From: Octopus vulgaris | Lineage: Eukaryota | DNA: 64,000 nucleotides | Assembly: GCA_951406725.2 (NCBI GenBank) | Contig: OX597819.1 | Location: 97,588,001-97,652,000 of the forward strand | Reading direction: 5' to 3' | Part shown: positions 27,128-39,060 of the stretch, piece by piece | How positions within the stretch are numbered: the stretch's first letter is position 1 | Layout of the letters: each line of letters begins with the position of its first letter | The notes under the pieces: generated by a model | Databases searched by the model: none | The model's input: the letters and a program-made list of their open reading frames with translations, nothing else | Told to the model about the DNA's origin: nothing | Position numbers and translations under genes: made by a program

Positions 27128-28370
27128 GATTGATTGATTGATTGATTGATTCTAGTTTCAGCTTATGAGCTGTGGCCATGCTGGGGCACCGCCATTTGGT
27201 GTTGCTACTTGGTTTCACTTCATGGAGGCTTTCTAGCAACTGCTATTTGGTGCATGAGAGAGTTCGATGCAGCTGCCCTCATCTGCCCCTCCTGCCGTGA
27301 AGTTGGTTCATCTGGGACACCTGACAGGAAGAGATCCAGCTCCATTTTAAAGACATCTGTATCCACCCCATGCAGGTCTCTCAGGTTCTTCGGGAGGATA
27401 TTGAAGAGCTGTGGGCCTCGGAAGCCCAGGCTATCACAGAATCTTGTCCTACATCTTGATGGCAAGTTTGGAGTCCTAGGCACCACGCAGTGGCGCCCAG
27501 TTCTGGCATTTGCGTAACTCTCGATGCCAAAGTTCAGGACACTTCCCTCCAGGATCTTCCAGATGTATATTATGGCATATCTTTCCCGCCTACGCTCCAG
27601 GGAATATAATTTTAATCTCTTGAGTCTTTCCCAGTAGCTTACATTCTGCATAGAGGCTATCTTCTTCGTGTAGCTTCGTTGGATCGCCTCAAGTTCTGTG
27701 ATCAACTTGACACTGGATGGTGACCATAGCTGAGAGCAATAGTCAAAGTGGCTTAGGACAAGTGTCTTCCAGAGGACCATCATGGTTTCTTGTTCTCTTG
27801 TTCTAAAGGTTCTAAGAATCCAGCCAGCCAGCCGTCTGCATTTCATTGTCAGTTTAGCAACATGTACATGAAAGGTCGCGTCATCACTCATGTGAATACC
27901 CAGGTCACGCACTGATTGTGCCTCTGGGATTGCAATCCCTCCGGGTCCAGTGTATTCCTTGGGTATTGCATTCAGTTTTGCATGCTGATAGTATAAAGCT
28001 TGAAACTTTTCAGCATTGAACTGCATGCTATTCTTTTCAGCCCACTTGTATATTTCGTCCAGCTCATATTGCAGGTGCTTAGTGTCTTCAGGGTTCTGTA
28101 TTGCCTGTGAAACTTTTGTATCATCTGCATAACTTGTGATCGTGGCTCTCCGCGTGGCTGAGGGCATGTCTGAGAGGGCCATTATGAACAGTAGTGGTCC
28201 CAAAACAGTGCCCTGTGGAACACCGCTCACTATTTGCGTGCTAATGGAAGTGGCCCCATTGGCTACTACCACCTGACTTCTATTCTTCAGAAAGTCGTGA
28301 AGCCATTCTCCTAGTTTTCCAACTATGCCAAGATCACGCAGTTTGTGACATATCATTCCATGATCGACTT
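27128..28370 (-). mobile_element. 5'-truncated CR1/L2-group LINE with uninterrupted RT C-terminal half
   Basis: ORF 27220-28370 has KVDHG, SGVPQGTVLGPLLF, SYADDTK, DLGI and YSLERRRERY. 3' end GGCGGTGCCCCAGCATGGCCACAGCTCATAAGCTGAAACTAG(AATC)n. Confidence 0.92.
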
Positions 28371-28381
28371 TATATATATAT

Positions 28382-28413
<32 letters not shown>

Positions 28414-28549
28414 GCATACACACATACACGACAGAAGTAAATAGACATCGCATAAATCATCGTGTTATGTTTATTCTAACTTGTAAAAGTTTATATTTTT
28501 TATTAATTGACATTTTTATGTTTCAGATTCTGTATGTGACTGTTTAATC

Positions 28550-30619: not shown

Positions 30620-30674
<55 letters not shown>

Positions 30675-30679
<5 letters not shown>

Positions 30680-31342
30680 TTAAAATTACTAAGTCTCTCT
30701 AAAAGAGAACAGCGGCAGCGTTCCCGGAAAATAATAGTTATCGCCATACTAATATGGCATTCTTATAAAAATAAGAATAAAGCTGTCCGCTTATTAGCTC
30801 CATGAGGCCATCGCCTTAAGTTAGCTATTTGATACACAAACTGTATCCATATAATGTTCGAAGGTTATATGGATACAGTTTGTGTATCAAATAGCTAACT
30901 TAAGGCGATGGCCTCATGGAGCTAATAAGCGGACAGCTTTATTCTTATTTTTATAAGAATGCCATATTATATGGCGATAACTATTATTTTCCGGGAACGC
31001 TGCCGCTGTTCTCTTTAGAGAGACTTAGTAATTTTAATATTTCTATTATTGAAAACAAGTGGATGTATTTCACCGAAACTAGGTAAATAAAACCATCGAA
31101 CAGAGATTGTCGGAAGCGACACCTACTGGCTGGCTACGCTGCATTGAAAAGGGGCAATACCCCGAAACGCGTCTGTAGCTGCCGGTCAAGTAGTGTGGAG
31201 CGACTGACCTCCCTTGTTCGAAGGTTATATGGATACAGTTTGTGTATCAAATAGCTAACTTAAGGCGATGGCCTCATGGAGCTAATAAGCGGACAGCTTT
31301 ATTCTTATTTTTATAAGAATGCCATATTAGTATGGCGATAAC

Positions 31343-31348
<6 letters not shown>
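30675..31348 (+). mobile_element. Penelope/retrozyme-like element: 180-bp 5' inversion + ~1.4 tandem copies of a 360-bp unit
   Basis: 30675-30854 is the reverse complement of 30865-31042; 30855-~30990 repeats directly at 31215-31348; flanked by (TA)n. Confidence 0.8.
31123..31193 (+). ncRNA. Type I hammerhead ribozyme, U3-A8 core variant
   Basis: GCTGCA-TTGAAAA-GGGG CAATA CCCC-GAA-ACGCGT-C^-TGTAGC. Distal stem I TGGCTGGC/GCCGGTCA and CTACT/AGTAG; predicted cleavage after 31173. Confidence 0.82.
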
Positions 31349-36409: not shown

Positions 36410-36636
36410 TATATATATATATATATATATATATAAACAATGATAAATATCAAAGTGAGTTATATACAGTAGCGGTAACACATCGTGACGTATATTTGCC
36501 ATCTCAATATGGCTACCCCTAAGGGTGGATGCTACTGTAGTTTTTAGCCCCAGGAGGACACACTCCTCCAGCTGGCCATAGACACACTTTCTGTGTCCTG
36601 TCAGTATTTGCAAAGGGAAGTCATCCTTCCCGTCTT

Positions 36637-36706
36637 CAACTTATGATACACACGGACTCGAGTTTCGAGGTATTGACCTCTCGTCAGCGTGTGACAATCA
36701 TAGTTG
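36637..36706 (-). ncRNA. Type I hammerhead ribozyme, canonical core (downstream copy)
   Basis: CAAC-TATGAT-TGT-CACACG-CTGACGA-GAGGT CAAT ACCTC-GAA-ACTCGAGT-C^-CGTGTG-T-ATCATA-A-GTTG; predicted cleavage 36655/36654. Confidence 0.9.
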
Positions 36707-36988
36707 TCGGCGAGAATTAGATTTCCTTCACAAATACTTATACTTTTTCCAGCGTCCACTGTCGCTGATATTGAAAAAGTGAAATCAAACAATGATAAAT
36801 ATCAAAGTGAGTTATATACAGTAGCGGTAACACATCGTGACGTATATTTGCCATCTCGATATGGCTACCCCTAAGGGTGGATGCTACTGTAGTTTTTAGC
36901 CCCAGGAGGACACACTCCTCCAGCTGGCCATAGACACACTTTCTGTGTCCTGTCAGTATTTGCAAAGGGAAGTCATCCTTCCCGTCTT

Positions 36989-37058
36989 CAACTTATGATA
37001 CACACGGACTCGAGTTTCGAGGTATTGACCTCTCGTCAGCGTGTGACAATCATAGTTG
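36989..37058 (-). ncRNA. Type I hammerhead ribozyme, canonical core (upstream copy)
   Basis: Identical to 36637-36706; predicted cleavage 37007/37006. Confidence 0.9.
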
Positions 37059-37106
37059 TCGGCGAGAATTAGATTTCCTTCACAAATACTTATACTTTTT
37101 CCAGCG

Positions 37107-37137
<31 letters not shown>

Positions 37138-38489: not shown

Positions 38490-38960
38490 TATAATATGAA
38501 GGCACTTACTGGAATATTTGCAGAGAAAGTATATATTTTCCTTTTGTGGGAAGAAATATTACCAAAGGAACAAAAAGGACGCAGGAAGAGATCTCAGAGC
38601 ACCAAGGATCAACTCGTTATCGTTAAGACATTTTTGAGGTATTGTAAAAACCATCATGTCAACATGTCTATGACCTGGATTGACTTTCAAGGGCATATGA
38701 TATGGTTTCTCATTCTTGGATAGTTAAATGCATGCAAATGTTTGGTGTTACTGGTAACATCACAAATTTTCTTCTGAATAGTATGTCTGAGTGGAAGATC
38801 AAGTTGTACTCGAGCTATGTATTCCTCAGAGAAGTAGAAATCAAAACGGGTATCTTTCAAGGTGACTCATTTTCACCATTAGTATTTGTCATAGCACTCA
38901 TGCCTATAAAACTGACACTTAGGAAAGTTAAAATTGATTACCAACCAAAGAAAGAACTGG
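38490..38960 (+). mobile_element. R4/Dong-clade RT fragment
   Basis: LPKEQKG..STKDQL..MTWIDF..AYDMVSHSWI..GIFQGDSFSPLVFVIALMP. Confidence 0.8.
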
Positions 38961-39060
38961 GAGAAATAAGCTATATTTCTGAGCGAGATATAAACAGTAG
39001 CAATACGGAATCGTAACATATAATTGCATATAATTGCCAAACAAGTGAACGCCATTTTCT

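Follow-up and report, generated by a model that had tools for sequence, protein, structure and literature searches.

Two near-identical, hammerhead-bearing repeats set in a (TA)n run of the Octopus vulgaris genome raise the question of how such a non-coding sequence is copied and inserted, by which enzyme and from which form of its RNA. They lie in the stretch of DNA analysed here, 64,000 nucleotides of contig OX597819.1 (assembly GCA_951406725.2, positions 97,588,001 to 97,652,000), hereafter the window. The origin of animal retrozymes from Penelope-like elements (PLEs) and circles as templates have already been proposed; what is added here is unusually clean genomic evidence on movement. Both the helper enzyme of animal retrozymes and the circle as template are stated to be open in passages of two reports (bioRxiv 10.64898/2026.07.22.740005; PMC7229834). 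The explanation that we consider likely is that the repeat belongs to a young non-coding hammerhead family, a non-LTR retrozyme, inserted into (TA)n by Neptune-like Penelope reverse transcriptase (RT)/GIY-YIG proteins, probably from circular RNA.

The 352-bp Tandem and Its Hammerheads

The insertion (36435–37107, minus strand; locus L007), delimited by tandem and unit alignment, consists of 1.9 head-to-tail copies with a period of 352, which are 99% alike and differ at one base (36506 A, 36858 G). Unit position 1 is defined as window position 36787, the unit being read on the minus strand. The full 352-bp unit (36436–36787, minus strand) is preceded in this reading by a second one of 320 bp (36788–37107, minus strand), and the (TA)n target is found at 36410–36435 on the 3′ side of the element and at 37107–37127 on its 5′ side. 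The original prediction had described two near-identical 352-bp units in (TA)n. The repeat, the identity and the TA flanks stand; two complete units do not, the second being 5′-truncated and covering unit positions 33–352. A convincing ORF had been denied to the unit, and indeed only ATG frames of 38 and 51 aa overlap the repeat, neither of them credible.

Each unit carries a predicted type I hammerhead on the minus strand, located by motif and Rfam searches at 36649–36693 (predicted cleavage between 36655 and 36654) and at 37001–37045 (between 37007 and 37006). The parts announced for it, namely CUGACGA, a 5-bp stem II with a CAAU loop, GAAA, the palindromic ACUCGAGU and GUC, are seen in both units and correspond to the conserved core CUGANGA/GAAA/NUH with stems I–III. 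Both units match Rfam Hammerhead_1 (RF00163), the check that had been suggested, with 32.2 bits and E 1.6e-5, slightly below the gathering cut-off of 34. When six loci were scanned with Rfam, microsatellite-driven miRNA noise alone was returned, with no hammerhead at E 0.05. Since cleavage is predicted after 37007 and 36655 (in each case after unit 133), the 352-nt monomer originally drawn from 37006 to 36655 has the correct coordinates, and its release from the minus strand by double cleavage (36655–37006) is predicted from the folds. Folding and compensatory changes between subfamilies further indicate an extended stem I rod (36603–36738, minus strand), in which unit positions ~50–100 would pair with ~134–185.

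For the window stretch spanning both ribozymes, the unconstrained minimum free energy (MFE) structure is a double hammerhead (-152.5 kcal/mol, z -6.5), in which the two ACUCGAGU palindromes make an 8-bp stem III and the stem I strands are swapped. As this is the MFE of the dimer, the view that the palindromic stem III favors dimeric cleavage gains support from modelling. The linear 352-nt monomer is predicted to fold far better than shuffles (z -7.2, 0/100), and the isolated 106-nt hammerhead region is not distinct from them (z -1.4, 17/200). The circular monomer, with a self-pairing z of -6.6, has a non-hammerhead MFE fold (-117.4 vs -111.5 kcal/mol with the hammerhead forced). In 20 units of older subfamilies, 15 of 112 pairs change on both sides, as compared with 9.6 after shuffling (3/500), and covariation cells number 46, as compared with 20.7 (0/500) and at most 10 when partners are slid; such counts are inflated by kinship among units, and the structure was that of the first sequence. 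The count of further pair types, 54 as compared with 57.7 after shuffling, did not support covariation. At the base of stem II (columns 116/129 of alignment A1), a canonical G-C occurs in the youngest subfamily only, the older ones having C-A, U-U or A-U.

Size and Age of the Family

In the genome searched (2.8 Gb, 227 contigs), an exact search for the 33-nt ribozyme gave 439 occurrences and a relaxed pattern, which takes in older subfamilies, 1046, with 0 matches for reversed controls. A search with the 352-bp unit gave 160 matches from the best 40 of 3103 candidates, mostly 98–100% identical. Older subfamilies (74–90% identity) have the same unit length, anatomy and two ends, and between subfamilies the ribozyme retains its core and its stems, with compensatory changes. 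Because unit-private divergence is 0.24% (123 substitutions in 51,952 bases), the window subfamily can be judged very young from these comparisons; this and the 439 exact ribozymes agree with the recent activity that had been suspected. No promoter was identified in the unit; older subfamilies do not conserve the TATA-like word located near unit 322. None of the public runs holding the unit is listed as RNA; among 14 that are only guessed to be RNA, contigs of four cover the unit and those of two join its end to its start, as a genomic tandem equally would. In one public contig, 383 letters long, the 352 unit is closed on itself. At least half of the unit's words are present in runs under eight organism codes.

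Two Fixed Ends and Their Pairing

Insertion anatomy was examined in 91 young insertions, comprising the 40 best unit matches, 16 from a position-ordered relaxed list and 35 from the first 100 exact-ribozyme rows (L124 was dropped as a duplicate of L119). Their 3′ ends fall at unit 297–306 (A) or 347–352 (B), about 43 nt apart, both internal and far from the cleavage site. On the minus strand of the window, end B (unit 347–352/353) lies at 36435–36439 and is the putative RT start site used by the window insertion; end A (unit 302–306), the other putative start site, used by other copies, lies at 36482–36486. The 43 nt between them (36439–36481, minus strand) form what PMC11167929 defines as a "tail", and inverted insertions carry it at one of their two ends only.

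Head-to-head inversion is seen in 44 of the 91 insertions. Ends A and B occur together in 38 of them and a pair of the same class in none, and the remaining 6 show a single irregular end. One end of each class is thus found in all inverted insertions with two regular ends (38/38). This rule implies a different start site for each of the two nicked target strands, and it constrains Penelope integration itself. The 47 non-inverted insertions end at A (33), at B (12) or elsewhere (2). Nearly all scorable ends run into TA (117/126), and target duplications of 11–15 bp, shared end letters included, were seen at four of five non-TA sites checked, the fifth being imperfect. Arms reach 6.0 units, 10 of 135 exceeding three, and the insertions are whole-unit arrays with no internal region, not LTR-shaped. 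Their 5′ ends are scattered. Since these ends are not enriched at the cleavage site (4/69 vs 4.4 expected), the linear cleaved monomer is ruled out as template.

The window insertion is non-inverted, has a B-type 3′ end and is cut at unit position 33; its two ribozymes are therefore a by-product of 1.9 turns. The original prediction overlooked the two internal insertion ends, unrelated to the cleavage site, as well as a sister family 5 kb upstream.

Two fixed 3′ ends with a tail, inversion, 5′ truncation and a microsatellite target are what is expected of PLE-mobilised sequences, and a dispersed multicopy family with retrotransposition marks is what is expected of a non-LTR retrozyme. A Penelope protein has been reported to nick and extend both strands, with RT starting at two internal sites that bound the tail (PMC11167929), and partial tandems, an inverted 5′-truncated copy and a 30–40-bp tail on one end have been described for PLEs (10.1101/2021.04.23.441226, PMC8557442; PMC3846280). 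The Penelope-type mobilisation proposed at the outset is thus strengthened by the anatomy of the 91 insertions. Because these have the same two fixed ends as the local Penelope retrotransposons, the 352 repeat was likely copied by Penelope enzymes, and we hold with high confidence that the retrozyme is moved by Penelope machinery.

Candidate Helpers

At least three young families encoding RT and GIY-YIG (A, B and F) are found in the genome, 150 out of 6136 GIY-YIG candidates having been scored. Each of them inserts in (TA)n, with two ends spaced by 40 nt (A), 35 nt (B) and 41 nt (F). Family A (L080–L089) has 781-codon frames. In family B (L090, 3082–5483, and others), all 121 scored copies are identical over 333 aa and many have 775-codon frames. 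In family F, one end of each class is found in 13/13 inverted insertions with both ends in view. An RT, a CX2-5CxxC linker and a GIY-YIG at the C-terminus were recognised in the three families, although Pfam GIY-YIG was not called on the scanned F copy; protein homologues confirmed RT plus GIY-YIG and named no clade. The label "Neptune-like" is taken from the linker only, as described in PMC8557442.

No clear hammerhead was found by motif scans in the ends of families A and F, and the ends A and B of the unit have no clear sequence in common with those of A, B or F. As no Penelope end homologous to the unit was found in the loci examined, the helpers remain candidates. In family B, the end carries a hammerhead-like motif, in which the young copies seen have CCGA in place of CUGA. 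Families F (L221–L228, e.g., G000:C5:131703500-131712000) and A have an extra upstream frame of ~470 codons, for which a scan of family A gave no Pfam match. RT fragments within the window (27220–28464, minus strand; 38684–39016, plus strand; Pfam RVT_1) are probably LINE-type and are not linked to the retrozyme.

Circle or Linear Multimer

The proposed course of events would begin with transcription of a multi-unit copy. Neighbouring hammerheads would pair via the palindromic stem III and cleave, yielding 352-nt monomers that a host ligase would close, the circle adopting a non-cleaving fold. Both (TA)n strands would be nicked by the Penelope protein; of the two 3′-OH ends, one would prime at site A, and the other would use site B of that RNA molecule, at a distance of 43 nt. 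The RT would then travel around the RNA as many as about 6 times, which would yield head-to-tail arms, and extension of both primers would produce the head-to-head inversion that has a tail at just one end. A dimer or longer RNA may sometimes be the template.

Variants among the units of single insertions bear on the template. In 56 insertions, 209 segments were compared, of which 17 below 96.5% identity were dropped and 192 kept. Where a locus has at least three covering units, the variant cases divide into 44 that are fixed, 9 of intermediate state and 78 confined to a single unit; 44 of the 53 cases seen in more than one unit are thus fixed across all units of the insertion. Six of the 44 are confined to one of the 56 insertions, and four of these six occur in both arms; such variants, private within 56 insertions of probably some 200 or more, are found for instance in 6/6 units in both arms of L019 and in 5/5 in L026. 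The cleavage site is crossed without indel in 144/144 cases. A variant born in one unit and later present in every unit requires a unit-length bottleneck followed by re-multimerisation, as rolling-circle reverse transcription provides. These patterns point to a monomer bottleneck with rolling-circle copying, to which local duplication or conversion could contribute. Circles were also proposed as templates for more-than-unit copies in PMC4209133. It is, in our view, fairly probable that circular RNA is the usual template.

The same family and the same Penelope helper could instead work from a linear, uncleaved multi-unit RNA, arrays being rebuilt through local duplication or template jumps of the RT, with the ribozyme only trimming the RNA or riding along. 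In four insertions (L019, L037, L045 and L130), unit differences are mirrored in both arms, in two of the four with the variant inside the ribozyme, which suggests that both arms copy one RNA, a multimer. Because of this mirroring, the template of these four was not a single monomer circle, and a multimeric one is required. Over the whole sample, 6 non-fixed variants occur in both arms (of which 5 stem from a single near-fixed locus), as against 47 restricted to one arm. A linear template would also agree with the reported in vitro behavior of the anole Penelope, for which the hammerhead is dispensable and unprocessed RNA is the main substrate (PMC11167929), with insertion ends, 5′ ends included, that ignore the cleavage site, and with the inverted PLE anatomy also shown by families A and F, where scanning for the motif revealed no clear hammerhead. 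However, 5′-truncating copying of linear arrays only shortens them, yet arms of 3–6 units persist, and new variants have repeatedly become fixed in every unit and both arms. Moreover, core and stems persist among the subfamilies, which show compensatory changes, and the sister family keeps the core by a paired change from C3-G8 to U3-A8. Taken together, a linear template for the family appears unlikely.

If twin-primed copying of a circle is the true reading, the genome would directly document that, in an animal, circRNA serves as an intermediate of retrotransposition. The questions of helper and template are directly testable here, since the family is very young, its RT starts are predicted at base level, three candidate helpers are intact and an in vitro assay for Penelope has been published (PMC11167929).

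Search for a Parent Element

The units might also be the pseudo-LTRs (pLTRs) of an autonomous Penelope family outside the sample, the window copy being its truncated end. Their anatomy is identical to that of Penelope ends, type I hammerheads occur in PLE pLTRs (PMC4209133) and, in hammerhead-like form, in family B, and GIY-YIG sampling covered 150 of the 6136 candidates. However, none of the 91 young insertions leads 5′ into an intact Penelope frame, so that the case once named as fatal to an independent retrozyme, all copies being pLTRs of a full Penelope, was not encountered in this sample; units lead instead into units, up to six times. A search with the unit profile in 108 other loci, of families A, B, F and others, found no pLTR and only two free old units, and no unit was present in 24 copies of a further Penelope family. 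No sequence common to the unit and a sampled autonomous pLTR was found, PLE families being partly sampled. We therefore regard a pLTR origin of the units as highly improbable.

Units of L113 and L310 adjoin Penelope 3′ ends with no TA gap. In L310 the Penelope is old and broken and the unit young, and in L113 the join lies at the natural end of the Penelope, 0/24 other copies of its family continuing into a unit; later insertion fits both. Several further loci were set aside. At L022 (380–830; G000:C5:97.797 Mb), unit and Penelope-F sequences interleave finely, within few bases; this was rejected as chimera evidence for a helper, and the junction, bridged by no contig of 4 public runs, is probably a consensus of two sequences. 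The two ribozymes 3.2 kb apart in L279 reflect duplication inside a satellite, not a Penelope, and where units neighbor Penelope copies, in L087 and L090, the two were inserted separately.

Satellite spread at the DNA level or a collapsed or duplicated assembly, with an incidental ribozyme, would suit the garbled edges of some arrays (17/209 segments below 96.5% identity) and the consensus-like mosaic of L022, but is already largely refuted and barely credible given short arrays dispersed over many contigs, fixed 3′ and random 5′ ends, target duplications, TA targeting and the self-closing 383-letter contig.

Comparison With Known Systems

Retrozyme identity, as originally put forward, is supported by the tandem of 150–450-bp units, one type I hammerhead per unit, the lack of coding capacity, dispersal and a stably paired monomer. 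On these sequence features, the 352 family would be a new non-LTR retrozyme family with a predicted ribozyme and candidate helpers. The metazoan non-LTR retrozymes of coral, mussel (~350–390 bp) and axolotl (330/350 bp) have the same tandem units and single type I hammerhead (PMC7229834); they also resemble the 352 family in a GC content below 50%, absence of an ORF, a highly paired predicted circle, a weak palindromic stem III favoring dimers and co-existence with PLEs, the comparison being by description and not by sequence. In that study, circles were shown by northern blot and the PLE link is a proposal, whereas the 352 family is known here from sequence; ends, inversions and tail are not described in the passages covered, whereas two fixed ends and the tail asymmetry are counted here.

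A recent preprint argues that animal retrozymes derive from PLEs and reports cleavage of 1/9 predicted retrozyme dimers (bioRxiv 10.64898/2026.07.22.740005). The vertebrate retrozymes it treats are, as the 352 family appears to be, non-autonomous, PLE-dependent and co-occurring with Neptune-type PLEs. Those of Xenopus are linked to pLTRs by sequence, in contrast to the 352 family, for which no homologous pLTR was found. Local tandem expansion is discussed there, with no mollusc sampled, whereas the 352 arrays look made at insertion.

Neptune/Nematis and Naiad PLEs share with the 352 family 5′ truncation, partial tandems, head-to-head inversion, a 30–45-nt tail on one end, (TA)n targeting and two internal RT starts (PMC8557442; PMC3846280; PMC11167929). 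Unlike PLEs, the 352 unit encodes neither RT nor nuclease, and whole units are repeated up to six times. The MRC1-type elements of Chlamys are likewise non-coding, PLE-type and multicopy with head-to-tail insertions, but are algal, have a 3′ end resembling that of an autonomous partner and belong to a clade said to have no canonical hammerheads (PMC8557442). In the literature covered, which does not extend to the supplement of PMC7229834, Repbase or Dfam, neither a cephalopod retrozyme nor an end-level analysis of retrozyme insertions was found; the main text of an octopus repeat paper contains neither "ribozyme" nor "hammerhead", and the examined text of PMC7761336 neither "octopus" nor "cephalopod".

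A Sister Family and Related Repeats

The 352-unit profile also hits the window at 31117–31287 (E 1.5e-6), within an inverted insertion in (TA)n (30674–31348) of a young, retrozyme-like family with 362-bp units, 5 kb upstream of the 352 tandem. Its predicted hammerhead (31138–31179, plus strand) has a U3-A8 core, identical in 27/34 copies; this natural covariation has been reported to be rare and active in vitro (PMC3088659). Genome-wide, 134 matches were obtained from 40 of 1202 candidates, one arm having ~10 units. The two ends of the family are ~60 nt apart, and one of each is present in 11/12 inverted copies. The predicted fold of the dimer is again a double hammerhead (z -8.1). Alignment of the 362 and 352 units scores 195, as compared with 129 for shuffles (maximum 148), from which the 362-bp family appears to be a distant sister of the 352 family.

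A wider reading takes in both families. A clade of at least two co-active circRNA retroelements, of 352 and 362 nt, with no sequence detectably common with any local Penelope, would recruit a Neptune-type RT by structure. Each would offer it two internal sites dedicated to priming, and a single circle would be integrated through twin-primed, rolling-circle reverse transcription. We put this forward tentatively, its chances being a little short of even.

Older relatives were also seen. An old short hammerhead repeat (L146, 4525–4700, minus strand; L166–L190), which has the stem III palindrome in common with the 352 family and likewise shows inversions and TA ends, has 61 candidates, with no upstream Penelope frame in the output examined. 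Within the window, a short relic at 38970–39027 (minus strand) derives from the tail region of an older 352-family subfamily. Finally, in L307 (2427–2503), a 352-family array directly adjoins a small 362-family insertion in the same TA run.
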